Source: a bacterium (lineage in GTDB: Bacteria > Myxococcota_A > UBA9160 > SZUA-336). From it: a DNA stretch of 64,000 nucleotides. The DNA is taken from the NCBI GenBank assembly GCA_041498295.1, contig JBGQIB010000004.1, forward strand, positions 8 to 64,007, given 5' to 3'. Below the pieces are notes generated by a model. The model made no database searches, had not been told where the DNA came from, and saw only the letters and a list, made by a program, of their open reading frames with translations. Position 1 is the stretch's first letter. Each line of letters starts with the position of its first letter. Made by a program: the position numbers and the translations under genes. This document shows positions 4,132-62,451 of the stretch, piece by piece.

Positions 4132-4166
4132 GCACCCCTCCAAAAGGCTCGAGCGCCAAAGATGGA

Positions 4167-31891: not shown

Positions 31892-32083
31892 ATGCCCCTG
31901 GTGCACATCATTCTCGTCCTGATCGTCGTCGGCGTGCTGCTCTGGCTCGTCAACAACTACATCCCGATGGACGGCAAGATCAAGAACATCCTCAACGGCG
32001 TGGTCGTGATCGTCGTGGTGCTGTGGCTGCTGAACGTCTTCGGGCTGCTCTCCGGACTCTCCGGCATCCGCGTCGGGAGCTGA
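31892..32083 (+). CDS. Small (63 aa) two-helix membrane protein
   Basis: 'MPLVHIILVLIVVGVLLWLVNNYIPMDGKIKNILNGVVVIVVVLWLLNVFGLL'. Lower GC than its neighbours. Confidence 0.5.
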   Translation: MPLVHIILVLIVVGVLLWLVNNYIPMDGKIKNILNGVVVIVVVLWLLNVFGLLSGLSGIRVGS

Positions 32084-32147: not shown

Positions 32148-32933
32148 CTAGCCGCCCGCCGCCGGGCGCGAGCCGCCTTCGATCCGGCCGAGCAAGCGCA
32201 GTAGCCCGTCCAGAATCGTGATCGGGTGGGGCGGACAGCCGGGGATGTAGAGATCGACCGGCACGACTGCGCTCGCGCCGTTCAGCACCTCGGGATGATC
32301 GATGTACGGGCCCCCCGAGATCGCGCACGCGCCCACGGCGATGACGAGCTTCGGCGCCGGCACCGCGGCCCAGGTCTTTTCCAGCGCGAGCCGCATGTTC
32401 TGACTCACCGCGCCCGTGATGAGCAGGCCGTCGGCGTGGCGCGGCGAAGCGACGAACGAGATGCCGAAACGCCCGAGGTCGAAGACCACGGTGCTCAGCA
32501 CGTTCACGTCGGCCTCGCACGCGTTGCAGCCGCCCGCGGAGACCTGGCGGAGCTTCAGAGAGCGGCCGAACAGGCGACGCATCTTAGTGTCGAGCGCGTC
32601 GGCGAGGCGCAAGGTCTCGTCGCGCAAGACCAGCGCTTCGCGTGTGCGCGTCGCGACCCGCCAGTCGCGCGTGAACTCGATCGCGCCTTCAGGGCACGCC
32701 TCGACGCAGTCCGTGCAGAAGAGACATTTGCCGAGATCCAGCTTCGGCCCCGCCTCGTCCGTGCTGAGCGCACCTGTCGGGCAGGCGTCGATGCAGGCGC
32801 GGCAGCCGTCGCGGCAGCGCGCGAAGTCGAGGGCCGGCGCGCCGCGCAGCCGGTCGGGAAGCCCCGGCTCGGCGTCGGGAAACGCGATCGTGCGCATTCC
32901 CTGAGCCCAGCGTGTGCGAAGGATCCTCCACAT
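32148..32933 (-). CDS. Fusion protein of a NuoI/HycF-like 2x[4Fe-4S] ferredoxin with a NuoB/HycG-like small subunit (Ehr/Hyf-type complex)
   Basis: ATG at 32933 with GGAGAA upstream. 'CRDGCRACIDACP' and 'CLFCTDCVEACP' are two ferredoxin motifs. 'GGCNACEADV', 'GACAISGGP' and 'IPGCPP' are the NuoB-type cluster ligands. Confidence 0.75.
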   Translation of the reverse strand: MWRILRTRWAQGMRTIAFPDAEPGLPDRLRGAPALDFARCRDGCRACIDACPTGALSTDEAGPKLDLGKCLFCTDCVEACPEGAIEFTRDWRVATRTREALVLRDETLRLADALDTKMRRLFGRSLKLRQVSAGGCNACEADVNVLSTVVFDLGRFGISFVASPRHADGLLITGAVSQNMRLALEKTWAAVPAPKLVIAVGACAISGGPYIDHPEVLNGASAVVPVDLYIPGCPPHPITILDGLLRLLGRIEGGSRPAAGG

Positions 32934-32950
32934 GACCGTTCTCCGACGAC

Positions 32951-34444
32951 CTAGAGGTCGAACCCGCAGTAGGAGAGGTTGAAGCTCTTGTTGCAGAGCG
33001 GGAAGTCCGAGATCTGCTGACCGCGCATGGCGAGCGCGACGCCCATCCAGTTGTGAAACGACGGGTCGACGACCTTGTAGCCGGCGAGGCGCCCCGTCGC
33101 GTCCGTCCAGCCCACGTGACAGATCTCGCCACGCCAACCCTCGACGAGCGAGACACAGAGCTGATCGGGCGCGAGTGACTCGCAGCTCGCGCGCGGCTCG
33201 CCCGCCGGCAAGCTCGCGAGCTGCTCGAGCGCGAACTCGGCCGAGCGGCGGATCTCGAGCCAACGCACGTAGGCGCGCGCGAACACGTCGCCGGAGTGCC
33301 ACGTCGCCGTCGGGATTTGCGCGACCCGGAACATGCCGGTCGGGTGGGTCGTGCGGATGTCGAGCGGCACACCGCAGGCGCGTGCGGCCGGGCCGACGAG
33401 ACCGATCTCCTCGGCCTGCTCGCGCGATAGGCGTCCTGTATCCTCGAAGCGCGACATCACCGACGGCGTGTCCCAGAGCAGGTCCGCGGCGGCGCCGACT
33501 TCGGCGACCGCAGTTCGGACGGCCTCGACCATGCGCTGCGCGCGCTTCGCGTCGACATCGAAGCCCACGCCGCCGGGGCGCACGAGGCTGCGCCCGAAAC
33601 GGTTCCCGCACAGCTCCGCCGAGAGGTTCAGCCAGTCGCCGCGCAACCGACCGCAGAATGCCGCGGTCGGCAGGAAGCCGACGTCGCCGGCGAGCGCACC
33701 CAGATCGCCGGTGTGATTCGCCACGCGCTCGAGCTCGAGTGCGACGGCGCGAAGCGCGTGCGCGCGCGCGGAGACCGGGCAATCGGACAACGCCTCGAGG
33801 ATCTGAACGTAGGCGGTGGCGTGACCAATCGTCGTGTCGCCCGCGAGTGTCTCGAAGTAGTGCAGCCGCCGCCGCTCCGCGCCTTCGAGAATCGCGCGCT
33901 CCACGCCGCGGTGCTGATAGCCGAGGGAGATCTCGAGATGCAGCACGCTCTCGCCGTGACACTGGAAGCGGAAGTGACCCGGCTCGATGACGCCCGCGTG
34001 CACCGGCCCGACGGCGACCTCGTGCACTTCCTCGCCCTCGACTCGATAGAAGTCCGCAATGCCGATCGGCGCAGGCGTTCCCGCTCGCGGCGGATAGCGC
34101 ACGGGCTTTCGCCACGGGTGCCCGTCGGGCTCGAGGCCGTACTGCTCGAAGATCTCGCGCTCGAACAGGTGGACACTCGGCAGGGATGGAGTCAGTGAGG
34201 GAAACGAGTGAGTCAGCGGCAGGCTCCGGCCGAGGCGGATCGAGCCGTCGCGGTCGGACGCGAGCGCGGCGACGAGTGAGACGCCGCCCGGTTCGCGCGT
34301 CCCGAAGAGCGCCGCCACGCGCTCGCCGCGTCGAACGCCTGCGAGCGTCGCGGCCTGAAGATCCGCGAGCTCTACGCACGGGACGTTGGCGATAGGAACC
34401 GCGCTGCCGCTCTGCGCGCGAAGAAAGGCGGTGGCTGCACTCAC
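32951..34444 (-). CDS. NuoC-NuoD / HycE-like fused 'large subunit' that lacks both Ni-Fe-binding CxxC motifs (hydrogenase-related, non-hydrogenase)
   Basis: GTG at 34444 overlaps the upstream TGA (GTGA). N-terminal 30-kDa-subunit-like block 'LFEREIFEQYGLEP'. The 49-kDa-like body carries 'ETLAGDTTIGHATAY' where [NiFe] large subunits have RxCGxCxxxH, and 'VDPSFHNWMG' where they have DPCxxCxxH/R. Confidence 0.75.
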   Translation of the reverse strand: MSAATAFLRAQSGSAVPIANVPCVELADLQAATLAGVRRGERVAALFGTREPGGVSLVAALASDRDGSIRLGRSLPLTHSFPSLTPSLPSVHLFEREIFEQYGLEPDGHPWRKPVRYPPRAGTPAPIGIADFYRVEGEEVHEVAVGPVHAGVIEPGHFRFQCHGESVLHLEISLGYQHRGVERAILEGAERRRLHYFETLAGDTTIGHATAYVQILEALSDCPVSARAHALRAVALELERVANHTGDLGALAGDVGFLPTAAFCGRLRGDWLNLSAELCGNRFGRSLVRPGGVGFDVDAKRAQRMVEAVRTAVAEVGAAADLLWDTPSVMSRFEDTGRLSREQAEEIGLVGPAARACGVPLDIRTTHPTGMFRVAQIPTATWHSGDVFARAYVRWLEIRRSAEFALEQLASLPAGEPRASCESLAPDQLCVSLVEGWRGEICHVGWTDATGRLAGYKVVDPSFHNWMGVALAMRGQQISDFPLCNKSFNLSYCGFDL

Positions 34445-35880
34445 CTCTGCCCCTCCACGGCCGAGGCGGCAGCGCGGAACAGCGCGAGCACCGGCTCCGG
34501 AATCCAGACGCCGAGCGCGAGCACCAACACCAAGAGCACCGCGATCGGCGCCACGGCCAGCCACCGGTCGCGATGCGGTTTCGCCGCGACGAGTTCGGGC
34601 GGCTCGCCTTGAACGACCGCGAGCACCGTCTGGCCCATGCCAACGAAGACGACGAGCAGAAGGCCGAGGAACAGCGCGGCCACCCCATAGCGCTCCGCGT
34701 GCATCATCGCGGAGAGGATCGTGAACTCACTCACGAACGTGCCGAACGGCGGGGTGCCGGTGGCTGCAAAGAAGCCCGCGAGAAACAGCGCCGCCGATGC
34801 GGGCAATACGCGCAGCGCGCCGCTTACGTCTGCGGTGCGCTTGCTGCCGAAGGCGCGGTGGAGGTTTCCCGCCGAGAGGAACAGCACGCCTTTCGAGAGT
34901 CCGTTGCTCACGAGGTGAAGCAAAGCGCCGAGGGTTCCGGCGCCGCCGATCGCGATGCCGAGCACGAGGATACCCATGTGCTCCACGCTCGAGTACGCGA
35001 GCATCCGCTTGTAGTCACCCTGTCTCACCATGAATGCGCCGGCGACGGCCATCGAGAACAAGCCGAGAAAGAGCAACGGGCCGCGCGCAAAGTCCGCCTC
35101 GCCGGCGGCCGCGCAGATTTGGAAGAATCGCAGGACCGCCGTGAACGCGCAGCTCGTAAGACCGCCCGCCAGGAGCGCACCGACCAGACCCGGCGCCTCG
35201 CCGTACGCGTCTGGCTTCCAGGTGTGCATGGGCGCGAGCCCCATCTTCGTGCCGTAGCCAACGAGAGCGAGCACGAAGCCCGAGTGGAGCCACGGGCGCG
35301 AGAGCTGGGGCGCGCTCGCGATCATGTCCGGCAGGAGCATCGACGGAGTGACTCCAGCCAGCAGCGCCGAGTACGCCGTGAAGAACGTACCGAGCAGCGC
35401 GAGCGCAATTCCGACCGATCCGATCAGGAGATACTTCCAGGTTGCCTCGATCGAGCGCGCGTTGCGGTTGAAATAGAGCAGCGGGCCGGAGGCGAGCGTG
35501 GTCGCCTCGACGGCGACCCAGAGCAGCCCGAGGTGCTGGGCGCCCGCGATCAGGTTCATCATCGCGAAGAACACCAGCATCACCGAGCAGAAGATCCGGT
35601 TCGGGCGCTCCACGCGCTGCGCCAGATAGCCGGGTGCGTAGGCGGCGCACAGGAAGAACAGCACGGCGAGATAGGTGGCGACGAGGCGGCCGAGCGCGTC
35701 GAGCGCGAGCCACGGGGCGCCGAACCCGCTGCCACGCCCGAGCAACTCGAGTGCGACGAGACCGAGCTGTGTCGCGCCCGCAGCGGGCAACAGCCACGGA
35801 CGCACCCGCTCCGACGGCGTGGCAAAGGCGAGCGCCGCGAAGGCGAGCGGCACGAGCACCAGCCAGGGCGCCACACTCAC
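34441..35880 (-). CDS. NuoN/NuoM/HyfF-like proton-pumping antiporter subunit
   Basis: 479 aa with about 14 helices. The MrpD/NuoN family blocks 'GLAPMHTWKPDAYGEAP' and 'YSSVEHMG' are conserved. Confidence 0.75.
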   Translation of the reverse strand: MSVAPWLVLVPLAFAALAFATPSERVRPWLLPAAGATQLGLVALELLGRGSGFGAPWLALDALGRLVATYLAVLFFLCAAYAPGYLAQRVERPNRIFCSVMLVFFAMMNLIAGAQHLGLLWVAVEATTLASGPLLYFNRNARSIEATWKYLLIGSVGIALALLGTFFTAYSALLAGVTPSMLLPDMIASAPQLSRPWLHSGFVLALVGYGTKMGLAPMHTWKPDAYGEAPGLVGALLAGGLTSCAFTAVLRFFQICAAAGEADFARGPLLFLGLFSMAVAGAFMVRQGDYKRMLAYSSVEHMGILVLGIAIGGAGTLGALLHLVSNGLSKGVLFLSAGNLHRAFGSKRTADVSGALRVLPASAALFLAGFFAATGTPPFGTFVSEFTILSAMMHAERYGVAALFLGLLLVVFVGMGQTVLAVVQGEPPELVAAKPHRDRWLAVAPIAVLLVLVLALGVWIPEPVLALFRAAASAVEGQR

Positions 35881-36518
35881 TCCCGCAGCGAGGTCAAGTG
35901 CTCCGTACTGAGCGACGAGAACTCGCGTTGAATGTGATCCATGATGATGCCCATCACGAAGACGGCGACGAAGAGGTCGAGCAGCACGCCGATCTCGACC
36001 AGGAACGGAATCGCTTCGACGAGGGTAAGCCCGAATACGAAGATTCCGTTCTCGAGCGTCAGATAGCCGATGACCTGCGTGATCGCCTTGCGCCGCGTCG
36101 TCAGCACCAGGAAGCCGGTCAGTACGGTGGCGAACGATGCTGGAACGATCAGGCTCCCTGCATGTTCGTCGAGCAGCGGTAGCGACCGAGAGAACACGAG
36201 CGACAAGCCCGTCGCGAGCGCCCCGAGCACGAGCGACGCGGTAAAGCCGACGAACGGCTCGATCTCACGCCGGATCGAGACGTTGCGCGTCGCACGTCGA
36301 AGGATCGCAGGGATCGCCACCCCCTTCAGCGCCGCGGTCGCGATCGACAACACGAGCACACGCGAGTTGGTCTGTCCGTGCGCCACGAACAGCGCCATGC
36401 CGAGCAAAATGCCCTGCATCCCCGCGAAATGAATCGCCGCGATCAAGCGGCTGGTTCCGAGCATCAAGAAATTCAGCAGCAACACGCCGACGAGCGCGAG
36501 ATCGAGAGTTTCTCCCAA
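35877..36518 (-). CDS. HyfE/hydrogenase-4 component E-like small membrane subunit
   Basis: 213 aa with 6-7 helices. Its size and position between the NuoH-like and NuoN-like genes match hyfE. Confidence 0.6.
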   Translation of the reverse strand: MGETLDLALVGVLLLNFLMLGTSRLIAAIHFAGMQGILLGMALFVAHGQTNSRVLVLSIATAALKGVAIPAILRRATRNVSIRREIEPFVGFTASLVLGALATGLSLVFSRSLPLLDEHAGSLIVPASFATVLTGFLVLTTRRKAITQVIGYLTLENGIFVFGLTLVEAIPFLVEIGVLLDLFVAVFVMGIIMDHIQREFSSLSTEHLTSLRE

Positions 36519-36522
36519 AGCC

Positions 36523-37437
36523 TCACCCCACCAAGAGCATCACGCCGAACGCGCTCAAGAGACTCGCGCCGACGAGCAAACTCGGAATGCGGAGCAGCGG
36601 CAAGCGCGCCATCAGCGACTCGATCAGGCCGACGAGAACCGAGAGCGCGATCAGCTCTGCGAGCGCGACGCCGATCCCGAGCGCTGCGCCGTCGACGTGG
36701 AAAGGCGTCGCGACGCGCACCAGCAAGAGCCCATACGCGAAGAGCTTCAGCGCCGCGCCGTACAAGATGAGTCCGAACGGCGGGCCGCTGTGATCCAGCG
36801 CCATCACTTCGTGAATCATCGTGAGCTCGAGGTGCGTGCTGGGGTCGTCGAACGGAATGCGGCTGTTCTCGGCGAGCAGCACGATCAAGAGCGATAGGGT
36901 GGCTAGACCGAGCGACGGCGCGGCGCGCGCCCAGAGCTCGGGAACCTCAGGCCCGAGCATCGCCCCGAGTGAGTAAGAGCCCGACAGCTTCACGAGCACG
37001 AGCAACGCGAAGAACGCCGCGGGCTCAGCCAGACACGAGAACGTCGCCTCGCGCGAGGCGCCCATGCCCTCGAACGCGGAGCCGGTGTCGAGCGCCGCAG
37101 CGATCGTGAAGAAGCGCCCGAGTCCCAGGAGATACGCGAAGGCGACGAGATCGCCGGGGAACGCGAACAGCGCGCCCCGCGCTCCGATCGGCACGAGCGA
37201 CGCAGCGAGAAGCGCCGTCGCGAGCGAGACGACCGGTCCCGCAAGAAAGACCCAGCTGGTCGTGCGGCTCCGCACCACCCCCTTCTGCAAGAGCCGCGCG
37301 AGGTCGAAGTAGGGCTGAAGGAGCGGCGGTCCGCGTCGACCCGCCATGCGCGCCTTGGTCCGGGCGATCACGCCGAGCATGAGTGGCGGGAAGAAGACGG
37401 GAAGCAGGAGCGCCGCCGCGACGTCTACGAGCGTCAT
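36523..37437 (-). CDS. NuoH/HyfC/HycD-like membrane subunit
   Basis: ATG at 37437 overlaps the upstream TGA (ATGA). 304 aa with NuoH family blocks 'QPYFDLARL' and 'ENSRIPFD'. Confidence 0.75.
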   Translation of the reverse strand: MTLVDVAAALLLPVFFPPLMLGVIARTKARMAGRRGPPLLQPYFDLARLLQKGVVRSRTTSWVFLAGPVVSLATALLAASLVPIGARGALFAFPGDLVAFAYLLGLGRFFTIAAALDTGSAFEGMGASREATFSCLAEPAAFFALLVLVKLSGSYSLGAMLGPEVPELWARAAPSLGLATLSLLIVLLAENSRIPFDDPSTHLELTMIHEVMALDHSGPPFGLILYGAALKLFAYGLLLVRVATPFHVDGAALGIGVALAELIALSVLVGLIESLMARLPLLRIPSLLVGASLLSAFGVMLLVG

Positions 37438-39440
37438 CGAGTCACTCCCGTCACGGCGAGCAGAGCGACGAGCGCGAGCCACACATACAGGAGGTACGCG
37501 TGGACGCTTCCCTGCTGCAGCACGCGAAGTCGGCCTGCGAGCTCCGCTAGCCCGCGCGCCGCGGGCACCACGAGCCGGTCGAGGACAGCATCGAGGACCT
37601 CGCTGTGGAACGTCGCGGGCCCGGGAAAGGTCGCCGCCAACCCCGGAGCGTGGACCCGTGGCCACAGCGCGAACGAGAACACGCGCACGAGCGGCGCGGC
37701 GAACGAGGAGGCCGAGTACTGCATTCGCGCGCTCGGAGCGCCGTAGCCGCAGTCCCAAGTTCCGGCGGCCGCGTGCTCCGCGCGCGCGAGGCGCGCGCGC
37801 AGCGCGAGGCCGATGCCCGCGCAGAGCGCGAGCACTGTGAGTGCGACGAGTGAGAAGGCGGCGAAGGGCGCGGAAAGGCCCGCGAGCGGAGTCCCGAGCG
37901 CGCTCGCCGCAGCCGCCGCGAGCGCGGGCGCGATCGCGAACGGCACGAGTCCGATCGCCGCGCACAGCGACGCGAGCAGCGCCATCGGCACAAGCATCAC
38001 GCCCGGAGCCTCATTCGTTCCGGTCAGCGCCCGCTGTCGCGGAGCGCCGAGAAACACGCTCCCGACGACCTTCGCGAAGCATGCGAGCGCGAGGCCGCCC
38101 GTCAGCGCGAGCGCCGGCGCCCCGAGGGCTGCGAGCACCCACACTGCGCCTCGCCCCGCGGCGACGACGCGCAGCAGTCCGGAGTAGACCAGGACCTCGC
38201 TCACGAAGCCGTTCAGCGGAGGCAGACCGACGATCGCGACGGCGCCGACGAGGAAGAAGCTCGCCGTCGCGGGCATCTCCTTCGCGATCCCGCCGAGCGC
38301 GTCGAGCGAGCGCGTGCCGGTGCGCTGGATGACGGCGCCTGCGCCCAGGAACAAGAGTCCCTTGAAGAGCGCGTGATTCACGACGTGCAGAAGGGCTCCA
38401 CTCATTGCGAGCGCCGCGGTGTCGAGGTCGCCGGCGGAGCGAGCCAGGAGCGCAACGCCGAGCCCGATCGCGATGATTCCGATGTTCTCGACGCTGTGAT
38501 ACGCGAGCAGCCGCTTCAAGTCGTGCTGCGCGAGCGCGTACGCGACTCCAAACACCGCGGATGCGATGCCCGCGACGAGCAGCGTCTCGCCCCACCAGAG
38601 CTGCGCGTCCGGTAGGAGGGAGACGACCCGCGCGATCCCGTAGATCCCCGACTTGATCAGCACGCCGGACAAGAGCGCCGAGACGTGCGTCGGGGCGGCC
38701 GCGTGCGCGGGCGGCAACCAGACGTGCAAAGGCACCAGGCCGGCCTTCAGCCCGAAGCCGACGAGCGCGAGCACGAAGAGCGCCGATTGGATCCCCGGCG
38801 CGATGCCCCCTACACGAACCGGTGTCCACTCGAACGATCCGGTCGCTGCAAAGAACAGCGCGAACAGCGCGAGCAGACAGAGCGTGCTGGCGCGCGTGCT
38901 CACGAGATAGAGAAAACCCGCGTCGCGTACGCCCGCGTCGTGCTCCTCGGCCGTGACGGCGAAGAAGGCGGCGATCGCCATGAGCTCCCAGCCGGCGAGG
39001 AACACCAGAGAGTGTCGCGCGACCAGCACGGAGACGAGGCCGGCGCTCGCGAGCCCGAACGAGACCCGAAGCCGCTCCGCGTTGCGCGGGTGGTCTTTGG
39101 CCGGAAAGTACGCAAGCGAGTAGAGCGCACACGCGGCGCTGAGCACCGCTACGGGAACGAGAAATAGCCCGGACAGCGCGTCGACCCCGACGACGAGCGC
39201 GCCGCCCGGAAAGCCGGCCGCGAACCTGAGTTCGTCGCCGCCGCCGGTGAGCGCAAGGATCGCCGCCGCGAGATCGATGGCGGCGCCCGAGACGAGCACG
39301 GCCACGCCGATTCGATCCGCTCGCCTCGGCCCGGCTCGGCGCGCGCAGAGCGCGGCGAAGCCGCTGGCTCCGATCCCCACGGCGCCGACCAGCGCGAGCA
39401 GCGTCGTCAACGACCGATCACCTCGCGCAGCGAAGCCCAT
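37434..39440 (-). CDS. NuoL/HyfB-like antiporter subunit (paralogue 2)
   Basis: 668 aa, NuoL/MrpA family, with 'LVPLHVWLPPAHAAAPTHVSALL' and 'YHSVENIG'. The ATG at 39440 overlaps the upstream gene by 34 bp. A TTG at 39410 would instead give a TTGA overlap. Confidence 0.75.
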   Translation of the reverse strand: MGFAARGDRSLTTLLALVGAVGIGASGFAALCARRAGPRRADRIGVAVLVSGAAIDLAAAILALTGGGDELRFAAGFPGGALVVGVDALSGLFLVPVAVLSAACALYSLAYFPAKDHPRNAERLRVSFGLASAGLVSVLVARHSLVFLAGWELMAIAAFFAVTAEEHDAGVRDAGFLYLVSTRASTLCLLALFALFFAATGSFEWTPVRVGGIAPGIQSALFVLALVGFGLKAGLVPLHVWLPPAHAAAPTHVSALLSGVLIKSGIYGIARVVSLLPDAQLWWGETLLVAGIASAVFGVAYALAQHDLKRLLAYHSVENIGIIAIGLGVALLARSAGDLDTAALAMSGALLHVVNHALFKGLLFLGAGAVIQRTGTRSLDALGGIAKEMPATASFFLVGAVAIVGLPPLNGFVSEVLVYSGLLRVVAAGRGAVWVLAALGAPALALTGGLALACFAKVVGSVFLGAPRQRALTGTNEAPGVMLVPMALLASLCAAIGLVPFAIAPALAAAAASALGTPLAGLSAPFAAFSLVALTVLALCAGIGLALRARLARAEHAAAGTWDCGYGAPSARMQYSASSFAAPLVRVFSFALWPRVHAPGLAATFPGPATFHSEVLDAVLDRLVVPAARGLAELAGRLRVLQQGSVHAYLLYVWLALVALLAVTGVTR

Positions 39441-41398
39441 GCCAGCGCCGCGACGACGGCCACCATGATGTAGGCGACGTACAGGTGTGCGTTCCCCTGC
39501 TGCAGCAAGCGCAGGCGCGTGAGGTAACTCGCGGCCGCCGCAAGAAGCGGCTCGTAGATGCGCGCGACGATGGGCTCCTCGTATCCCGCACGGAGCGACG
39601 CCGGCCCAGGGGTGACTCCGCGCAATGCGGGTTCGATGGTCCGCGGCGCCAAGACTCGGGGCAGTACGCCGCTCGCGAACAGCTGCGAGAATGAGTGGGC
39701 GGTGTACTGCATGCGCGAGCTAGGCGCTGTGTAGCCGCACGCCCAGGTTTCATCCTCTGCGCGCGCGCCGCTGCGAACCCGCGCGACGAGCAGCGTCGCG
39801 ACGACGGCGACGGCGAGCCAGAGCGCGAGCGACAGCGTGGCGAGAGGCCTGAGTGCGAGCGAGGCGTTCGTCAGCCCGCTCGCTCCGCTCTGGCTGCCCA
39901 GCAGCTCGCCGAGGGGCGCGCCGACGCCGCGAAGCGCGAGTGAGGGCGCGAGGCCGATCGCGACGCAGAGCAGAGCGAGTCCCGCCATGACGGCGAACAT
40001 CGATCCGCCGACGTCGTGCGCGCGCTTCGCGGCCTCGCTTCGCGCCTGGCCGAGAAACACCATCCCGAACAAACGAACGAAAGCCGCCGCGCCGAGCGCA
40101 CCGACCAGCGCGAGCAGCCCGAGCGCGAGCGACGCGACGACGGATCCGAGCGAACTCCCGTCCGTCACCGCGTGAAGGAAACCGAGATACAGGAGCCACT
40201 CACTCGCGAATCCGTTGAGCGGCGGGAGCGCGCCGAGCGCGACGGCTCCGAGCGCGAAGACCACGGCGAGGCGCGGCATCTGGCGCGCCAAGCCCCCGAG
40301 GCGCTCGAGGTCGCGCGTTCCGGCGCCGTGTTGAACCCCGCCCGCCGCGAAGAACAACAGGCCCTTCATCGCCGCGTGATTCCAGATGTGGAAGAGTCCC
40401 GCGGACAGCCCGAGCACCGCGAGCACGCCGTCGCCGCGTGCGAGCGCGGCGAGCCCGACGCCGAGGCCGAGACCGATCAGCCCGAGATTCTCGACGCTGG
40501 AGTGCGCGAGCGCTCGCTTCAGATCGCGCTGCGCAAGCGAGAGAGCGATCCCGAGCAACGCACCGACGAGCCCGAGGGCCGCGAGCGACAGACCGAACGC
40601 CGCGGGCGCGCCTCCAAGCAGCCACACGACGCGCAGCAGCCCGTAGTAGCCGAGCTTCACCATCGCGCCCGACATCAGCGCAGATACATGAGACGGCGCC
40701 GCGGCGTGCGCTTCGGGCAGCCAGACGTGCAGCGGGACGATGCCAGCCTTCACACCGAAGCCGACGAGCGCCAGCGCGAGAAGCGTGCCCGGGCTCGCCG
40801 CCGCGGACGTGAGCGCGGTGCCGGACGCTCCGCCGAGTGAGTCGCCGAGAAGCACGAAGAGCGCGAGCAGCGCGGCAGTGCCCATGTGCGATGCGACCAG
40901 ATAGATCCAACCCGCCCGCCGCGCTTCGGCGCGCTCGTGTTCGAAGGTCACGAGCAGATACGCGCAGAGCGACATGGTCTCCCAGGCGACGAGAAACAGA
41001 ATGCCGTTGCGCGCCAGGGTCACCGCGATCATGGCGGCGCAGAGCCCGTTGAAGAAGAGCCAGCTCACTCCGGCCCGACGCGGGTTGCCGTAGCTCGCGA
41101 GATAGGCGCGGCCGTAGAGCGCCGCGAGCGCCGAGAGCCCGAGCACCGGAACCAGAAAGAACGCCGACAGCGGATCGAGCCCGAATGACAGCGCGCCGCC
41201 GGGCAGGCTCCAGGGAAGCTCTGCGCGCAGCTCCACTCCTCCAGACAGCACGCGGACGACCGGCAGCAATCCGAGCAGCGCGGCGAGCGGCGCGCCGGCG
41301 CAGCCGAGTGCGGCGGACCAACGGGGCGAGCGCGCACTCGCGACCGCTGCGAGCCCCGAGGCGAGCAGAAGGGCGCACGCCGCGAGGAGCGCCGTCAT
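39407..41398 (-). CDS. NuoL/HyfB-like antiporter subunit (paralogue 1)
   Basis: 663 aa with 'IVPLHVWLPEAHAAAPSHVSALM' and 'HSSVENLG'. The ATG overlaps the upstream HTH-EIIA gene stop (ATGA). Confidence 0.75.
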   Translation of the reverse strand: MTALLAACALLLASGLAAVASARSPRWSAALGCAGAPLAALLGLLPVVRVLSGGVELRAELPWSLPGGALSFGLDPLSAFFLVPVLGLSALAALYGRAYLASYGNPRRAGVSWLFFNGLCAAMIAVTLARNGILFLVAWETMSLCAYLLVTFEHERAEARRAGWIYLVASHMGTAALLALFVLLGDSLGGASGTALTSAAASPGTLLALALVGFGVKAGIVPLHVWLPEAHAAAPSHVSALMSGAMVKLGYYGLLRVVWLLGGAPAAFGLSLAALGLVGALLGIALSLAQRDLKRALAHSSVENLGLIGLGLGVGLAALARGDGVLAVLGLSAGLFHIWNHAAMKGLLFFAAGGVQHGAGTRDLERLGGLARQMPRLAVVFALGAVALGALPPLNGFASEWLLYLGFLHAVTDGSSLGSVVASLALGLLALVGALGAAAFVRLFGMVFLGQARSEAAKRAHDVGGSMFAVMAGLALLCVAIGLAPSLALRGVGAPLGELLGSQSGASGLTNASLALRPLATLSLALWLAVAVVATLLVARVRSGARAEDETWACGYTAPSSRMQYTAHSFSQLFASGVLPRVLAPRTIEPALRGVTPGPASLRAGYEEPIVARIYEPLLAAAASYLTRLRLLQQGNAHLYVAYIMVAVVAALAWASLREVIGR

Positions 41399-42096
41399 GC
41401 GGTCGGCGAATTCGTTTCAGTGGCGAAGCCGGACTCTACTCGGCGCAGCACCGCCGCAATCTCATCTGGCGGTGCGCGCCGCTCGAGGACGCGGCGGAAG
41501 GCGGGGTCGTGCAGCGCTGCAGACAACCGCGAAAGCAGCCGCAGATGTGTACGACTGGTCGGAGTCACGATCACGAACAGGATCCCGACCGGCTTCCCGT
41601 CGAGCGCGCCGAACGGGATCGGCTCCTCGAGAAAGCAGAGCGCGACCGCGGGTCGCACGTGCAGCAGCACCGGGTTGCGAACATGCGGGATCGCGATGCC
41701 ATCGCCGATCGCCGTAGACCCGAGGTTCTCGCGCGCGAGCAGCACCTCGTAGAGAAACTCGCGGTCTACTTCCTCGGGGAGCTCGAGCACGCGCACGACG
41801 TCGCGCAGCACCGTCTCGCGATCGGCGCCGCCCTTCATGAAGTGGATGCCTCCGGCCTCGAGCGCGTCCTCCAATGTCGGAAGCGGCGCCTCCTCTCGGG
41901 AGGGTTCCGAGAAGAGCTCCGCGGATACGCGCACCCCTTGAGCCGTCGCCCATTCCAGCAGCTCTGCGCGATTGAAACGGTGCTGCCCGTGCGCGCGGTG
42001 GACGGGGAGACCTCGATCGTCGATCCAACGGTAGATCGTCTTATCGGGAACACCGAGCAGACGCGCGGCGTCCCGCACCGTGATCTTGACCCCCAC
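41395..42096 (-). CDS. Regulatory protein with an N-terminal MerR/excisionase-type HTH and a C-terminal PTS EIIA(Fru/Ntr)-like domain
   Basis: 'ITVRDAARLLGVPDKTIYRWIDDRGLPVHR' is an HTH. The C-terminal 150 aa contain 'AIGDGIAIPH', the EIIA type-2 phosphorylatable-His motif. It is the first gene of the membrane-complex operon. Confidence 0.65.
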   Translation of the reverse strand: MGVKITVRDAARLLGVPDKTIYRWIDDRGLPVHRAHGQHRFNRAELLEWATAQGVRVSAELFSEPSREEAPLPTLEDALEAGGIHFMKGGADRETVLRDVVRVLELPEEVDREFLYEVLLARENLGSTAIGDGIAIPHVRNPVLLHVRPAVALCFLEEPIPFGALDGKPVGILFVIVTPTSRTHLRLLSRLSAALHDPAFRRVLERRAPPDEIAAVLRRVESGFATETNSPTA

Positions 42097-42409
42097 CGGC
42101 AGCTCTCCGCCCGCGAGATCCGCAGGCGCGTCGGTTGTTTAGAGCGGGTCGCCGTTGCTGTCAACCGACCGCGATCGAGGTGTGAGCGGGGCCGCGGGCT
42201 GCCGCGCGCTGATTCCCTCGCCCAGCGTGATCCCGACCTTCGGCTCGAGCTGGCATTCGTGGGCGCCGCGGTCACCAAAACCATCCGGACCGACTCACTC
42301 CGGACCGCCCTCCGAATCCGTGCACAGAAATACTCTCGCGCGAGTCCGGGGTGCCGTAACCCCGTCTACGAGATTTCTCTTTTCCATTGCCGGGGCCAAG
42401 GCTGAGAAT

Positions 42410-43096
42410 GTGGCGGTGAGTCACGTGTGGCGGCCGTGGGCGTTCGGTCTGTTGGAACTCGGGTTTGCGTTTTCGTTCGCGGCGACTCCGGATGCGGCGA
42501 CCACCACTTGGTACTTCGAGGGCGTGGTTCGCGAGGTGGTCGAGGCGCCGGAGCTGACTCCGCTCGGTGTGACTCCGGGCACGGCATTCTCCGCGACGAT
42601 CTCGCTCGAGTCATCGATCGCCAACGACTCGGCGGACCCGGACTCCACCGACTACCCAGGCGCCATCCTCGCGGCTGACTTCAACGCCGGCACGTATCAC
42701 CTCTCGATCCAACCGAACCCGGGGTTGTCTCTCCTCCAGGTGTTCGCGCCGATCCCATTGCTCATCGCGCAGGGCGTGCGACTCGAGCCTGTCGGCTCTC
42801 CGCTAGAGAACCTTCTGGTCGAGCTGAGGGCCTTCGGAATCGCCCCCGGGGTCTTCGCGTTGGATGCAATGCCGATCGATCCGCCGTCGCTGGACGACCT
42901 GGCCCCATACCCGGAGTTGCCATCCGGCGTAGGCACGGCTCTTACGATCTCCGGCCATCACGACGGCATCGGTCACTACATGCAAGCCGAGATCACTCGC
43001 TGGGAGCGCGTGCCTGAGCCCGCCACGGGCGCGCTCGTGGGTCTCGTTCTTCTTGCGCCGCACGCGCTGCGACTCAGGAGGCGCCGGGCAGCTTGA
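42410..43096 (+). CDS. PEP-CTERM sorting-signal protein (secreted/exosortase substrate)
   Basis: The C-terminus 'VPEPATGALVGLVLLAPHALRLRRRRAA*' is a textbook PEP motif plus transmembrane helix plus Arg cluster. GTG at 42410 gives signal peptide 'VAVSHVWRPWAFGLLELGFAFSFAATP'. AAGG lies 9 nt upstream and the 5' region is low in GC. Confidence 0.6.
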   Translation: MAVSHVWRPWAFGLLELGFAFSFAATPDAATTTWYFEGVVREVVEAPELTPLGVTPGTAFSATISLESSIANDSADPDSTDYPGAILAADFNAGTYHLSIQPNPGLSLLQVFAPIPLLIAQGVRLEPVGSPLENLLVELRAFGIAPGVFALDAMPIDPPSLDDLAPYPELPSGVGTALTISGHHDGIGHYMQAEITRWERVPEPATGALVGLVLLAPHALRLRRRRAA

Positions 43097-44234
43097 TGCC
43101 CTGTTTCTCGAACTCCTTGGCGATCGCGCCGCCGTACTCGGCCAAGAGATCGCCGCGCGCCTTCTGCGTCGCCTCGATCGTCGCGATGCGGCCGGCGTTG
43201 CGGTCCTGGAAGCGCGGCATCACGTAGCGCGAGAAGAGCTCGTAACTCTTCTTTGTGTTGTCCCACGACGCCCAGTTATGCGCGAGCTGCAGGAACGTGC
43301 CGAAGCCGCCCGACTCGTTCTGCAGCCGCTCGAGCTGCTCGATCGCGTCGTCCGGCGTGCCGATCACCGCGAACCTCTGCGCGATCATGCTCTCGATCAC
43401 TTCGTCGACCGAGCCCGGCATGCCGAGCGGCAGCGACGCGACTTCGCGGAAGTAGAACAGCCAGTCACCGAGGCCGAAGCGCACGTTCGCGCGGGCTTGC
43501 TCGCGCGTCTCCGCGATGTGCATCGGTCCGACCAGGCGCCAGCGCGAGCGGTCTGCCTCGAACCCGTTCGCCTTGCTCGAATCCGTGTAGACCTGCCAGT
43601 TCATGCCGAGCATGCTGAAGCCCTCGAAGCTCGTCGCCCCGAGCGACAGGAGACCCGCGCCGTGCTTGCCCGCGATGCGTGCGCCGGCGGGCGAGATCTG
43701 CGACGCGACCGCGTATTCGAGGTTCTGACTGAACGGACGGAGCTGCAGCCGCGCGTCGACCAGCCGGAACCAGCTTCCGTCGTGAGTCACGGTCTCGCCG
43801 CGGAGCAGGCGCAGAATCACGCCGAGCCCCTCGTCGAGCATGTCGCGCTGCTTCGACGCTTCGAGCCCGAGCATGCGTGCGTCGGACTGGAGCGCGCCCG
43901 GGCCGGAGCCGAACATGACCCGGCCGCGAGTCATGTGGTCCAGCTGCACGATCCGCTCCGCGATCATGAACGGGTGATGGTACGGAACCGAGATGACACC
44001 CGTGCCGAGCCGGATGTGCCTCGTGTGCTGTGAGGCGATCGCGAGGAAGATCTCGGGCGACGCGATCAGCTCGAAGCCGGCGGAGTGGTGCTCTCCCACC
44101 CAGGCCTCGTCATAGCGCAGCTGATCGAGCCACTTCAGCAGCTCGAGGTCGCGGTCGAGACACGCCGTCGGGTCCTCGCGGACGGGATGGAACGGCGCGA
44201 GAAAGATCCCGAAGCGCAGCGGCGGATGGCTCAT
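43074..44234 (-). CDS. LLM-class (luciferase-like) flavin-dependent oxidoreductase
   Basis: 386 aa. 'MSHPPLRFGIFLAPFHP' matches an LLM N-terminus, and a TIM-barrel pattern runs throughout. Confidence 0.8.
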   Translation of the reverse strand: MSHPPLRFGIFLAPFHPVREDPTACLDRDLELLKWLDQLRYDEAWVGEHHSAGFELIASPEIFLAIASQHTRHIRLGTGVISVPYHHPFMIAERIVQLDHMTRGRVMFGSGPGALQSDARMLGLEASKQRDMLDEGLGVILRLLRGETVTHDGSWFRLVDARLQLRPFSQNLEYAVASQISPAGARIAGKHGAGLLSLGATSFEGFSMLGMNWQVYTDSSKANGFEADRSRWRLVGPMHIAETREQARANVRFGLGDWLFYFREVASLPLGMPGSVDEVIESMIAQRFAVIGTPDDAIEQLERLQNESGGFGTFLQLAHNWASWDNTKKSYELFSRYVMPRFQDRNAGRIATIEATQKARGDLLAEYGGAIAKEFEKQGIKLPGAS

Positions 44235-52760: not shown

Positions 52761-53119
52761 TCGCGGAGGACGAGCGCCAGCTCGCCGACACCCTGGCCGA
52801 GGTGTTGCGCGGCGCGGGTCACGCGGTGCGTATCGCGGAGGGCGGGAGTCAGGCGCTCTCGCTCGCAAGTGAATTTCCCCCGGACCTCCTGATCTCGGAC
52901 TGGGCGCTGGGGGGCACGCCTGACGGCATGGAGCTGATCGTGCGTCTGCGCGTGACTCGACCGGGCCTGCGCGCGATTCTGATGACCGGCTATCCGTCCG
53001 CGCGCCTGCGCGCCTTCGCGGGAGCCGATCCAGCGCTGGGCATGCTCGAGAAGCCGTTCTCGCTCGCCGAGCTCCGCGCGGTGCTCGCGCGTGTGCTCGC
53101 GGTCAAGGCACCGGCTTGA
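52745..53119 (+). CDS. Stand-alone response-regulator receiver (REC) domain protein
   Basis: 'VLIAEDERQ...DLLISDWAL...LMTGY...EKPF' carries the DD, D and K landmarks. The GTG start overlaps the kinase 3' end by 16 bp. Confidence 0.65.
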   Translation: MASVLIAEDERQLADTLAEVLRGAGHAVRIAEGGSQALSLASEFPPDLLISDWALGGTPDGMELIVRLRVTRPGLRAILMTGYPSARLRAFAGADPALGMLEKPFSLAELRAVLARVLAVKAPA

Positions 53120-55544: not shown

Positions 55545-57653
55545 CTCGAAGCTCCTTCGGGTTCGGCGCGCGGCGGCTTGACGCGGGCGGCGGCGCTCTC
55601 CACCAGAGTGCAGAGCGCGGAATCAGCGGCGAGCTCGTCGACGTCGCGCCGCATGCGCCGCGACCAGCTCCGGTGCACCTCGACGGGGATGCCCGGGAGG
55701 TTCAGCGGCTCGCGCTCGCCCGCGAGGTCGTCGAGCCCGAAGGCGACGAGGCGCGAGGGCGTGCGCGCGAGGAATAGCTGCGCGGCGCGCGTGAGTGAGT
55801 CCGTATCACTCGACGCGTCGAGCTCACCCTCGGCGCGGAGTCTTTCGGCGAGCGACTCGCGATCTGCGCCGCGCTCGCGCTGCGCGCGTTCGAGCGGCTC
55901 GCCGCGCGGCAGTGCGCCGATCTCGGCGCGCAGCTCGAGATCGCGGCCCTCGAGCCAGCCGGCGAGCGGCGGGAGGTCGTGAGTCACGACGAGCGAGAAC
56001 GCGCGCTCGGGGTAACTCGAGCTCGGTCGAAACGTCGCGCCGTCGCGCTCGAAGCAGAGCACGCGCATCGACAGGACGCCCCACGATTCGAGCTCCGGCG
56101 GCAGCTCCGCGGGCACCGTGCCGAGATCCTCGCCGATGACCAGCGAGCGCGCGTACCGGCTCTCGAGCGCGAGCACGCCGAACAGATCCGCCGCGGGCTG
56201 CGCGACGTACGTGCCCTCGCTGCCGGGGCGACCGGCGGGAATCCAGAACTGCCGCTGCAGACCCATGACGTGGTCGATGCGCAGCGCCCCCGAGGCGCGG
56301 AACGCGCCGCGCAGCAGGCGGCGCAGGAAGCGGTAGCCGTCGGCGCGCAGTCTGTGCGGCACCAGCGGCGGCAGGCCCCAGTTCTGTCCGGAGGCCGCGT
56401 ATGCATCGGGGGGTGCGCCGAGCGCCGCGCCCTCGGCGAAGAGCGTGCGACACATCCAAGTGTCGGCCGAGTCGGGTGCGCTGCCGATTGCGAGGTCCTT
56501 GCACACCCCGATGCGCATCCCGGCGGCGCGCGCCGCGTCGGCGGCGGAGCCGAGCTGCAGCGCGAGCTCGGCCTGCAGCCAGCAGCGGAAGTCGATCTCC
56601 TCGGCATGCGCCAGCGTGAACTCGCGCAGCTCGGCCGAGCGGGGATCGCGCAGCTCCGCGGGCCAGCGGCGCCAGTCCGGCTCGCGCAGCTCGGCTTGCG
56701 CCACTTCGAAAGTGGCGAAGTCGACGAGCTCGGGTCCGGCCTCGCTGCGCGCGCGCGCCTGCGCGCGGCCCCGCGCCGTCTCGCCGTCGCGCTCGCCCGC
56801 CTGGAAGGCGCGGTAGAGCTCGCGCAGCACGGAGAGCTTCGCGGCGAGAATCGCCGCGTGGTCGAGCTCGTGCGCGGCGCGCAGGCGCTCGAGCGGCAGC
56901 TGCGTCGCCACGGCGCGCGCGCGTGTCGCGTGCGCGAACTCAGGTACCGCCTCGACGTCGAGATACAGCGGGTTCATGAAGATCCGCGAGAGGGGGCTGT
57001 AGGGCGCGATCGCGTCACCGCGGTTCGCGAGCGCGTGCAGCGGATTCACCGCCACGAAGTCCGCGCCCAGTGGCGCAAGCCACTCCGCCAGCCGCGCCAG
57101 ATCCGAAAAATCGCCGAAGCCCCAGTTCTCCCGACTCCGAACGGTGTAGAGGTTCGTCCAGACGCCGAGCGCGCGCGCGCCGCCGAGCGCTTCGTCCGCG
57201 CGCCAGGCCGTGCGCGGCGCGACGATCAAGAGCTGGCTCGCGGCTCGTCCCGCGAGCTCGACCCGGAGCTCGTATGCGCCGGGCTCGAGCTCGGCGGGCA
57301 ATGCGAGCTCGCCCGCGGCAACGCGCGCAGTCACGCTCGAGCGCTCGCCCGACTCGAGCGCGATCTCGACCTGCGCCTCGCCATCCGCCGCCCCGCGCAC
57401 GCGCAGGCTCGGAGGCGCGCCCGGTGTCTGGCGGAAGACGCGCACCGGCTCGAGCCACTGCTCCGCGTCCGTGGCCACCCCCTCCGCGAGCCGCACCTCG
57501 GCCTCCGCCTCGCTGCCGCAAGCGAACCCCATCGCCGTACACAGCGCTTCGCGCGTCGCATCGCTCGTCGGGCGGTGCACGCCCGCGATGTCGTGATAGC
57601 TCGAGAACACGCCGAGCCGCTCCGCGAGCCTGCCGAGCGCGGGCCGCGCCGAC

Positions 57654-57661
<8 letters not shown>
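55541..57661 (-). CDS. malQ: 4-alpha-glucanotransferase (amylomaltase)
   Basis: 706 aa with the GH77 blocks 'RIDHVMGL', 'IGEDLGTVP' and 'HDLPPLAGW'. Confidence 0.85.
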
Positions 57662-59657
<1,996 letters not shown>

Positions 59658-59661
59658 TCGC

Positions 59662-61098: not shown

Positions 61099-61106
61099 CC
61101 GGCCCC

Positions 61107-62363: not shown

Positions 62364-62451
62364 TCCGTTCCGTTTCTAACCCGCGGCCGAGGCGCGGGCA
62401 AGCGGCGTTGGGTAGGATGGCCGCGCAGCAACCGACGGAGGGAGAACGCCC

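Follow-up and report, generated by a model that had tools for sequence, protein, structure and literature searches.

What might a membrane complex built like a group 4 [NiFe]-hydrogenase do once its large subunit has lost the cysteines that hold the metal? The question is raised by an operon of eight co-directional minus-strand genes, seven structural genes and a regulator, found at 32148-42096 of a 64,000-nt stretch of bacterial DNA (positions 8 to 64,007 of contig JBGQIB010000004.1, assembly GCA_041498295.1), which is referred to here as the window and has a G+C content of about 70%. The operon almost certainly encodes a complex of the energy-converting hydrogenase-related (Ehr) type and not a hydrogenase. 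Ehr has been an unsolved piece of the complex I/hydrogenase family since 2005, being present in thousands of genomes (nitrifiers, Geobacter, gut Bacteroidota and many uncultured phyla), and some authors call its genes dead. The comparative data presented here narrow the problem, as they point to a complex that is selected and partner-free, with a rebuilt pocket that holds neither the hydrogenase nor the complex-I substrate ligands. Moreover, one large Ehr subfamily appears hard-wired to a regulator of the nitrogen-related phosphotransferase system (PTS-Ntr) type, with a recognisable candidate operator in many lineages. The main worth of the locus lies in this conserved regulator/operator and in the evidence for a pocket remodelled under selection.

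The Geobacter cluster GSU0739-0745 was reportedly described as 'Ech-hydrogenase-related' by Coppi in 2005, and the class is said to have been called 'energy-converting hydrogenase-related' by Marreiros and colleagues in 2013. The name Ehr was coined for that cluster, and the Ehr subunits of Geobacter sulfurreducens are EhrA-1, EhrA-2, EhrB, EhrC (HyfE-like), EhrD, EhrL and EhrS, all of which were detected and regulated in the Geobacter proteome, being more abundant on formate (PMC7894505). Ehr complexes are group 4-like and devoid of the Ni-Fe-binding cysteines (PMC10284858, PMC6349859, PMC10432482), and papers published from 2019 to 2026 place them near group 4 (4a or 4f), describe them as CxxC-less and give their function as unknown (PMC6349859, PMC7304191, PMC10284858, PMC10432482). 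A literature search for a characterised Ehr function returned nothing beyond 'unknown' and the proteomics under formate conditions. A first-pass annotation of the window had stated that the donor, acceptor and role of Ehr are without assignment, in agreement with the literature up to 2023-2026.

Loss and replacement of the Ni-Fe site in the large subunit

The large subunit is a 497-aa NuoC+NuoD/HycE-like fusion (EhrL-like; 32951..34444, minus strand), assigned, like the other operon proteins, by Pfam and NCBIfam searches (Complex1_49kDa, 5e-34; Complex1_30kDa, 1e-6), and its best solved-structure relative by sequence is Escherichia coli HycE (7z0s_E, E = 4e-37). Neither the L1 nor the L2 motif of group 4 [NiFe]-hydrogenases was found in it. 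In place of L1 (RxCGxCxxxH) stands ETLAGDTTIGH (residues 198-208; 33821..33853, minus strand), which aligns with DRVCGICGFAH of HycE and with ERICGVCAASH of P0238, a large subunit from Candidatus Wujingus californicus; the first-pass annotation had located AGDTTIGH at this motif, and correctly so. In place of L2 (DPCxxCxx[HR]) stands the C-terminal PLCNKSFNLSYCGFDL (residues 482-497; 32954..33001, minus strand), whose closing NLSYCGFDL lies opposite DPCYSCTDR of HycE and LCYSCTDL of P0238; in the P0238 alignment, the C-terminal match sets NKSFNLSYCGFDL opposite NKSFELCYSCTDL. The stretch DPSFHNWMG, which had been proposed as the equivalent of DPCxxCxxH, aligns instead with AATYANW of HycE and APSFVNL of Nqo4, that is, with the complex-I PSFxN stretch located upstream, and this part of the annotation had to be given up. 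The loss of both CxxC pairs which it had reported stands, as mapping L1 and L2 onto the 32951..34444 product returned zero CxxC pairs, and the four Ni-Fe ligand columns of the multiple alignment hold A201, T204, S491 and G494 against a cysteine at each of them in HycE and P0238. Furthermore, Cys493 misses the position of the second L2 ligand by one residue, and the C-terminus coincides with the end of mature HycE. The alignments show a predicted protein that cannot ligate Ni-Fe.

The relative from Ca. Wujingus californicus (P0238/P0291, Planctomycetota) is a [NiFe] sister with 36% identity over 433 residues (E = 2e-92), which keeps ERICGVCAASH and LCYSCTDL with their four cysteines and matches Pfam NiFeSe_Hases. 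Its operon (L092) follows an identical six-gene plan, in which the small subunit is again a Fer4-NuoB fusion, and the C-terminal context DFPL.NKSF.L.Y...DL is shared. Unlike the window operon, it has no gene for a helix-turn-helix (HTH)-EIIA regulator, and there is no formate dehydrogenase gene in it. A PDDEXK_3 nuclease-family gene was observed between its large- and small-subunit genes (11644-12036 of L092).

Pocket conservation was evaluated on 81 large-subunit sequences from many phyla. The segments VGPVHAG[VI]IEPGHFRF, ET.AGDT[TS].GH and DPSFHNW and the last 18 residues, DFPLCNKSFNLSYCG.DL, were near-invariant among them, and every position but one of the C-terminal segment 482-497 was at least 95% conserved, with position -3 from the C-terminus being F in the lineage of the window and H in most others. 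In particular, Cys484 and Cys493 (PLC...SYCG) were at least 95% conserved within the subfamily, while C493 was replaced by Ser or Ala (SYSG, SYAG) in deeper Ehr branches. Since the residues that replace the Ni-Fe ligands are themselves near-invariant, the former Ni-Fe pocket is, judging from these alignments, rebuilt under selection rather than decayed. The AlphaFold2 model of the large subunit (predicted local distance difference test score, pLDDT, of 74) had HycE (7z0s_E) as its top Foldseek match, and as a model it confirms only the overall HycE-like fold.

Small subunit and membrane arm

The small subunit (261 aa, EhrS-like; 32148..32933, minus strand; Oxidored_q6, 7e-28; Fer4_7, 1e-9) is a fusion of a HycF/NuoI-like domain for two [4Fe-4S] clusters (residues ~1-110) with a HycG/NuoB-like domain for the proximal cluster (~117-255), so that the proximal-cluster small subunit and the HycF/EchF-type dicluster protein of group 4 were both found, in one polypeptide. 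It matched HycG at 9e-33 and HycF at 1e-11. Exactly 12 cysteines were counted, arranged as two Cx(2-3)CxxCxxxCP groups (40/44/47/51 and 70/73/76/80) plus C136, C139, C203 and C233; all of them align with the ligands of HycG/MbhJ and HycF and are at least 95% conserved. The alignments show a predicted small subunit with its ligands for three [4Fe-4S] clusters in place, in line with the earlier description of a NuoB-like subunit with retained ligands fused to a two-cluster ferredoxin.

The predicted membrane arm contains three antiporter-like subunits. The first HyfB/NuoL-like subunit (663 aa, EhrA-1-like; 39407..41398, minus strand) matched Proton_antipo_M at 1.7e-46 and NF005086, 'hydrogenase 4 subunit B', with 545 bits, and the second (658 aa, TTG start, EhrA-2-like; 37434..39410, minus strand; Proton_antipo_M, 1e-51) is 44% identical to it and has HycC as its best solved match (7z0s_C, 3e-69). 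The HyfF/NuoN-like subunit (479 aa, EhrD-like; 34441..35880, minus strand) matched Proton_antipo_M at 1e-42 and NF005044, 'hydrogenase 4 subunit F', with 325 bits. These are accompanied by a HycD/NuoH-like membrane subunit (304 aa, EhrB-like; 36523..37437, minus strand; NADHdh, 9e-32), which is close to HycD (7z0s_D, 7e-28) and MbhM (2e-19) and reaches NuoH at only 6e-6, and by a HyfE-like membrane subunit (213 aa, TTG start, EhrC-like; 35877..36518, minus strand). The latter was recognized by NF008556, 'hydrogenase 4 membrane subunit', at 1.8e-21, which is below the cutoff of that model, together with a weak Oxidored_q2 match, and the PDB search gave zero sequence relatives for it. The domain content described in the first-pass annotation agrees with the Pfam and NCBIfam results.

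Conservation of the residues expected in ion pumping was counted over 57-69 homologues. In the second HyfB-like subunit, E142, K222, K253, H342, H346, K350 and E405 were invariant (57 homologues), as were E125, K212 and K330 of the HyfF-like one. Both types of subunit retain the Glu of transmembrane segment (TM) 5, the Lys of TM7/TM8 and the Lys/His/Glu positions of TM12. Moreover, E123, E130, E138, E190, D197, D198, E204, E210 and E273 were invariant in the HycD-like subunit. As these pump residues are kept, the predicted ion-translocation machinery looks intact.

Assignment to the Ehr class and comparison with related systems

The large subunit is homologous to those of group 4 and devoid of the Ni-Fe cysteines, the subunit set comprises NuoL-like (one or two), NuoH-like, HyfE-like, NuoN-like, large and small subunits, and a rough neighbour-joining tree, built on distances only and carrying no support values, placed the large subunit in a CxxC-less clade beside group 4. 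All subunits with solved relatives were closest to formate hydrogenlyase (FHL)/Hyf, the ligand columns read A/T/S/G and the subunit list equals that of Geobacter, which upholds the Ehr-type assignment made in the first-pass annotation. In the same rough tree, the window copy fell in a short-branched crown group of the large CxxC-less clade, this clade was sister to HycE and MbhL, and P0238, the only sequence with all four cysteines (CCCC) among the top 150 representatives, was found among the basal branches. The locus is a new copy of a known class, to which the spread of the unit over at least 12 phyla and the link to the regulator, both described below, are newly added.

The Ehr of Geobacter has the same subunits in the same order, a likeness drawn from the published list and not from sequence, and its large subunit likewise has no Ni-Fe cysteines; the window copy differs in belonging to the crown subfamily in which an HTH-EIIA gene comes first. 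The orthologue of Geobacter EhrL was sought by cluster name, and the entries retrieved came from Magnetoovum, Bacteroidota, Cloacimonadota, Rhodoferax, Rikenellaceae and Acidobacteriota, with none from Geobacter. With E. coli Hyf and FHL-1 (7Z0S), the operon shares the best solved relatives (HycE, HycG, HycF, HycD and HycC) and the membrane subunits of the HyfB, HyfE and HyfF types. In contrast to them, the Ni-Fe ligands are missing, the HycF-like and HycG-like proteins are fused, an HTH-EIIA regulator takes the place of HyfR/FhlA, and genes for HyfA/HycB, formate dehydrogenase (fdh), HyfD, hyp proteins and the hydrogenase protease are absent from the window, none of the hyp, protease or fdh genes appearing among its ~40 open reading frames (ORFs).

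The membrane-bound sulfane reductase (MBS/MBX) of Pyrococcus furiosus (6U8Y) was a detectable homologue (6u8y_L, 2e-12; 6u8y_M, 3e-10). MBS derives from group 4, has lost the hydrogenase chemistry and still couples the oxidation of ferredoxin to ion translocation. It is much more distant from the operon than FHL (2e-12 vs. 4e-37 for HycE; 3e-10 for MbsM vs. 7e-28 for HycD) and, unlike it, carries an Mrp-type module and has its small and ferredoxin-like subunits as separate proteins. With complex I, NDH-1 and Fpo, the operon shares the L-shaped logic, equivalents of NuoB, NuoC, NuoD, NuoH and NuoI, and three antiporter-like subunits, whereas NuoEFG, any other input module and separate NuoA, NuoJ and NuoK genes are missing, and the proximal cluster has a hydrogenase-type CxxC instead of the tandem CC.

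Other class assignments were tried and rejected. A true group 4 [NiFe]-hydrogenase was rejected by the absence of the L1 and L2 cysteine ligands, and MBS/MBX by the far closer HycE and HycD, compared to MbsL and MbsM, and by the absence of an Mrp module. Orthology to a conventional complex I or Mrp operon, which had been named beforehand as a finding against the Ehr assignment, failed by gene set and by scores. For complex I, the quinone ligands are absent, and so are NuoE, NuoF, NuoG, NuoA, NuoJ and NuoK from both the operon and its conserved flanks, the eight genes of the operon falling short of a full set of 11-14 subunits. For an Mrp antiporter, the MrpB, MrpC, MrpE, MrpF and MrpG genes are absent, Fe-S subunits are present, and HyfB and HyfF models outscore those of MrpA and MrpD on the antiporter-like subunits (NCBIfam).

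Distribution of the operon and selection on its genes

Relatives of the large subunit were abundant, with 5771 matches among 50%-identity representatives and more than 8000 clusters in a set of 5.8 billion proteins, where the top 120 were all at least 61% identical. A scan with one genome per species gave a total of 567 relatives, of which the best 80 were used to compare loci. These best 80 loci came from at least 12 phyla, with large subunits 54-64% identical to the window copy, and included Myxococcota, Planctomycetota, Verrucomicrobiota, Kiritimatiellota, Acidobacteriota, Methylomirabilota and Zixibacteria, as well as Latescibacterota, Eisenbacteria, Krumholzibacteriia, Elusimicrobia, Omnitrophota, Binatia and Desulfobacteraceae. 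A cultured carrier, Pontiella sulfatireligans F21 (Kiritimatiellota), was among them; such cultured carriers offer an experimental handle, together with the phosphorylation of the regulator and its binding to the operator. The gene order in the 80 loci was regulator, one or two HyfB-like genes, HycD-like, HyfE-like, HyfF-like, large subunit and fused small subunit.

When all ORFs flanking the 80 loci were clustered, no other family was present in more than four of them, and no formate dehydrogenase, ferredoxin or hyp gene recurred in these flanks. Judging by this gene context, the Ehr complex requires no dedicated partner enzyme. Furthermore, comparison with relatives at ~80% identity gave ratios of nonsynonymous to synonymous substitution rates (dN/dS) of 0.08-0.30 for all eight genes, the lowest being those of the small subunit (0.08-0.12). 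These ratios show all eight predicted genes to be under purifying selection, and with selection of this strength on the operon, the complex is therefore not expected to be a relic.

The HTH-EIIA regulator and its candidate operator

The first gene of the operon encodes a 233-aa regulator (41395..42096, minus strand) with an N-terminal excisionase/MerR-type HTH_17 domain (3e-14) and a C-terminal EIIA(Ntr)-type domain (PTS_EIIA_2, 4e-26; PF00359, 92 bits against a cutoff of 27). The EIIA_2 fold and the conserved phosphorylatable histidine of the G.GIAIPH motif were both found in it, as in PtsN (EIIA-Ntr). In particular, the phospho-acceptor motif reads GDGIAIPH and is at least 95% conserved, its His138 (codon 41683-41685) aligning with the active histidine of the best solved relatives, namely the PtsN structures 3urr, 2a0j and 1a6j. 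For MtlR-type regulators, it is well established that a transcription factor can be controlled by phosphorylating its EIIA domain. Compared to MtlR and LicR, the protein is minimal, consisting of HTH_17 and EIIA, with PRD, EIIB and Mga domains all missing, and is tied to a respiratory-type operon and not to sugar uptake.

Of the 53 loci with sufficient upstream sequence, 50 have the regulator gene immediately ahead of the operon, and in the window it overlaps the first HyfB-like gene by an ATGA junction, which sustains the view that the operon has its own coupled regulator. More than 7000 clusters share the HTH_17+EIIA architecture, and every homologue whose context was sampled stood with an Ehr operon. 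The exceptions among the 53 loci, with no regulator directly upstream, were two from Kiritimatiellae (L070 and L078) and one from Verrucomicrobia (L073). In L073, a divergent regulator copy (29% identity) was observed between the HyfB-like and HycD-like genes. Tandem duplications of the HTH-EIIA gene ahead of the Ehr operon were also seen (L038, 1491-2959; L049, 3352-4892; L089, 9001-10564). The more distant Ehr of Rhodoferax ferrireducens comes without an HTH-EIIA gene; as this gene is absent from both the Wujingus and Rhodoferax operons, the link to the regulator is therefore taken as a trait of the crown subfamily. No description of it turned up in the search of the Ehr literature.

Upstream of the regulator gene, a putative promoter was recognized by sequence and alignment (42136..42164, minus strand), with TTGACA (42159-42164) and TAAACA (42136-42141) separated by a 17-nt spacer. 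Three relatives (~80% protein identity) share both hexamers but not the intergenic sequence around them. The promoter was not called by a consensus scanner, the second hexamer ending in A, and the consensus scans of both operon ends returned zero promoters and weak terminator-like hairpins only. The alignment of the three relatives also revealed a conserved 5′ leader (42097..42135, minus strand) with a near-palindrome, GCGGATC(T)CGC, and a GGAGAG ribosome-binding site before the GTG start. The whole region at 42097-42164, promoter and leader together, may act as an operator specific to this lineage or form an RNA hairpin.

Across the loci, a search for a palindromic operator common to the regions ahead of the regulator gene gave none above shuffled controls. 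By k-mer enrichment, a tandem direct repeat, TGTCY-N5-TGTCY (10-bp period), was found upstream of the regulator in 19 of 48 loci, belonging to several other phyla (L036, L080 around 3870-3885, L075, L060 and L019 among them), against a background of 3 matches in 1.75 Mb. In 16 of the 19 loci, it was located 23-43 nt upstream of the regulator start. The repeat overlaps the -10 region of a TTGACA promoter in these loci, and in many cases TTGACA-N4-5-TGGRCA comes before it, oriented the opposite way. This TGTCY repeat is probably the operator of the HTH-EIIA protein; direct repeats would fit an excisionase-type HTH, and their position suggests repression.

Proposed mechanism and alternative explanations

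The reading that we prefer, held tentatively and with somewhat less than even confidence, is that of a complete Ehr complex which would be fed by ferredoxin, would translocate ions, would reduce an acceptor in the rebuilt pocket (with quinone as a tentative choice) and would be switched by PTS-Ntr. A soluble low-potential carrier, most likely ferredoxin, would feed electrons into the exposed HycF/NuoI-like dicluster in the manner of Ech, Mbh and NDH-1, from where they would pass through the proximal cluster to an acceptor bound in the pocket formed by ET.AGDT[TS].GH and the C-terminal PLCNKSFNLSYCG[F/H]DL. The reaction would drive, or when reversed be driven by, the translocation of H+ or Na+ through the two HyfB-like subunits, the HyfF-like and the HycD-like subunit. 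A ferredoxin-type donor is argued for by the Wujingus [NiFe] sister, since its same layout and lack of a formate dehydrogenase suggest that the donor side was inherited from an Ech-like enzyme. Regarding the acceptor, the large size of the membrane arm and an aerobic host lead to a tentative choice of the membrane quinone pool, bound in a non-canonical manner. An uncultured, Myxococcota-like aerobe is the probable host, as the closest named relatives of the large subunit are Myxococcota metagenome-assembled genomes (MAGs) and the window encodes an O2-dependent coproporphyrinogen III oxidase, HemF (3217-4311, minus strand; 8.5e-116), which implies a life with oxygen. The HTH-EIIA protein would control transcription, with His138 of its EIIA(Ntr) domain being phosphorylated by NPr/HPr, and expression would thereby be tied to the phosphoenolpyruvate (PEP)/pyruvate ratio or to the carbon/nitrogen (C/N) status; a switch of expression by PTS-Ntr phosphorylation via this protein is probable.

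Several findings weigh against this proposal. We infer both the donor and the acceptor, neither of which is named by the sequence. The quinone head-group ligands of Thermus thermophilus Nqo4, His38 and Tyr87, align with Ile153 and Gly202 of the large subunit, and the corresponding family columns hold Ile in 86 of 93 sequences and Gly in 92 of 96, while Asp139 of Nqo4 is kept as D254. The membrane anchor is HycD-like and not NuoH-like, and pLDDT drops below 50 at residues 142-151 (the beta1-beta2 loop) and 482-497, i.e. exactly at the pocket. Ehr has been reported in organisms without quinone synthesis, such as Riflemargulisbacteria (PMC6349859) and bacteria of the candidate phyla radiation (PMC7304191). 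The quinone acceptor stays weak because the canonical ligands are absent and other Ehr lineages have quinone-less carriers. On the donor side, the link of Ehr abundance with growth on formate in Geobacter could point to another donor (PMC7894505). As for the regulation, no TGTCY repeat was found in the window, including its own promoter.

Among the alternatives, it is unlikely that the complex works as a ferredoxin-dependent reductase of polysulfide, persulfide, disulfide or another small soluble acceptor in the manner of MBS, with catalysis at or beside the proximal [4Fe-4S] cluster using Cys484 and Cys493. The joint absence of Ni-Fe and complex-I quinone ligands would fit it, as would the occurrence of relatives in quinone-less lineages, the detectable homology to MBS subunits, and the conserved PLC...SYCG cysteines in a C-terminal segment that reaches the old active site. 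However, deeper Ehr branches have Ser or Ala in place of C493, which is thus not a class-wide catalytic residue, FHL/Hyf is much closer than MBS and no Mrp-type module is present, HemF suggests an aerobic host, the surroundings of the 80 loci hold no conserved gene of sulfur metabolism, and the pocket part of the AlphaFold2 model is too poor to place the two cysteines in space. Improbable as well is a complex running in reverse, in which the membrane potential would lift electrons from a donor of higher potential, a quinol, to ferredoxin or flavodoxin to supply aerobes with low-potential reductant. Ehr is present in aerobes that need reduced ferredoxin, e.g. comammox Nitrospira (PMC10284858), and the host here is apparently aerobic. 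The three antiporter-like subunits and the intact E-channel-type subunit, making an arm as large as that of complex I, also speak for this direction, and C/N sensing of the PTS-Ntr type would fit an anabolic role. Nevertheless, such an operation shares the unproven quinone assumption, the canonical quinone ligands being absent, no ferredoxin-consuming pathway is linked to the operon, and the direction cannot be read from sequence.

It is very unlikely that the operon encodes a regulated cation/proton transporter of the Mrp/Hyf type whose Fe-S arm is a sensor or a structural remnant, and whose link to an EIIA(Ntr) protein would echo the control that PtsN exerts on K+ transport in E. coli, even if the Lys/Glu relays of the antiporter-like subunits are intact and a substrate site is not identifiable. 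E. coli EIIA(Ntr) regulates TrkA and KdpD, which counts for such a transporter. Against it, the 12 Fe-S cysteines and the old pocket rank with the best-conserved parts of the complex, dN/dS is at its lowest in the small subunit, and the fusion of EIIA to a DNA-binding domain, along with the conserved candidate operator in relatives, points to transcriptional and not allosteric control. Finally, a decaying, non-functional hydrogenase relic is hardly tenable. The Ni-Fe site is indeed lost, and Ehr was called 'nonfunctional' and accumulating mutations in one 2026 paper on Geobacter (PMC13194489), but none of the eight reading frames is interrupted and most are coupled in translation, dN/dS does not exceed 0.30, identities of 54-64% extend over at least 12 phyla with the ligand-replacing residues near-invariant, and the Ehr subunits of Geobacter are detected and regulated in its proteome (PMC7894505). 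Relic status is, on the aligned sequences, already contradicted by these conservation data.

A broader proposal, which goes beyond the ferredoxin-fed complex of the window and is rather doubtful when taken in its entirety, would have the crown subfamily as a self-contained respiratory module of seven to eight genes moving horizontally between phyla, with the former Ni-Fe pocket turned into a new near-invariant catalytic site for a redox reaction so far undescribed in the enzyme superfamily and involving neither H2 nor canonical quinone chemistry, and switched by PTS-Ntr through a minimal HTH-EIIA repressor acting on tandem TGTCYA repeats.

Operon architecture and neighbouring genes

The coordinates and gene order of the first-pass annotation were reproduced, while its count of seven genes becomes eight with the regulator included. 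Public copies of the contig, in the MAGs GCA_041478195.1 and GCA_041490925.1, carry independent gene calls that match the operon genes. Likewise, the statement that every junction is a 4-bp ATGA or GTGA overlap was right for a 4-bp overlap at five of the seven junctions, one of these being TTGA, and not for the other two. Following the direction of transcription, the regulator and first HyfB-like genes overlap by ATGA, the two HyfB-like genes by TTGA (TTG start), and the second HyfB-like and HycD-like genes by ATGA; the HycD-like and HyfE-like genes are separated by a 4-nt gap; the HyfE-like and HyfF-like genes overlap by GTGA, or leave a 2-nt gap with the start used in the public gene calls (GTG at 35874, giving a HyfF-like protein of 477 aa); the HyfF-like and large-subunit genes overlap by GTGA; and the large- and small-subunit genes are separated by a 17-nt gap carrying a GGAG ribosome-binding site.

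The end of the operon is faced by a convergent plus-strand ORF of 63 aa (31892-32083), which has two predicted transmembrane segments, lies in a locally A+T-richer patch and was assigned to Pfam THIVI_2564 in the public gene call. On the other side, just upstream of the regulator, a luciferase-like oxidoreductase of the FMN/F420 type is encoded (43074-44234, minus strand); such a gene is also upstream in the Myxococcota-type relatives L083-L087, with varying orientation, and is not there in other phyla. Between this gene and the regulator lies an ORF of uncertain gene status (42155-43096, plus strand) with a weak PEP-CTERM motif (E = 6e-4, just short of the Pfam cutoff). The window further contains housekeeping and other genes, including those for an MMPL transporter, EF-G and YchF, and a glycogen/maltodextrin cluster (53103-62375, minus strand) with glycogen phosphorylase, 4-alpha-glucanotransferase, a CBM48/alpha-amylase-family enzyme and glucose-1-phosphate adenylyltransferase.

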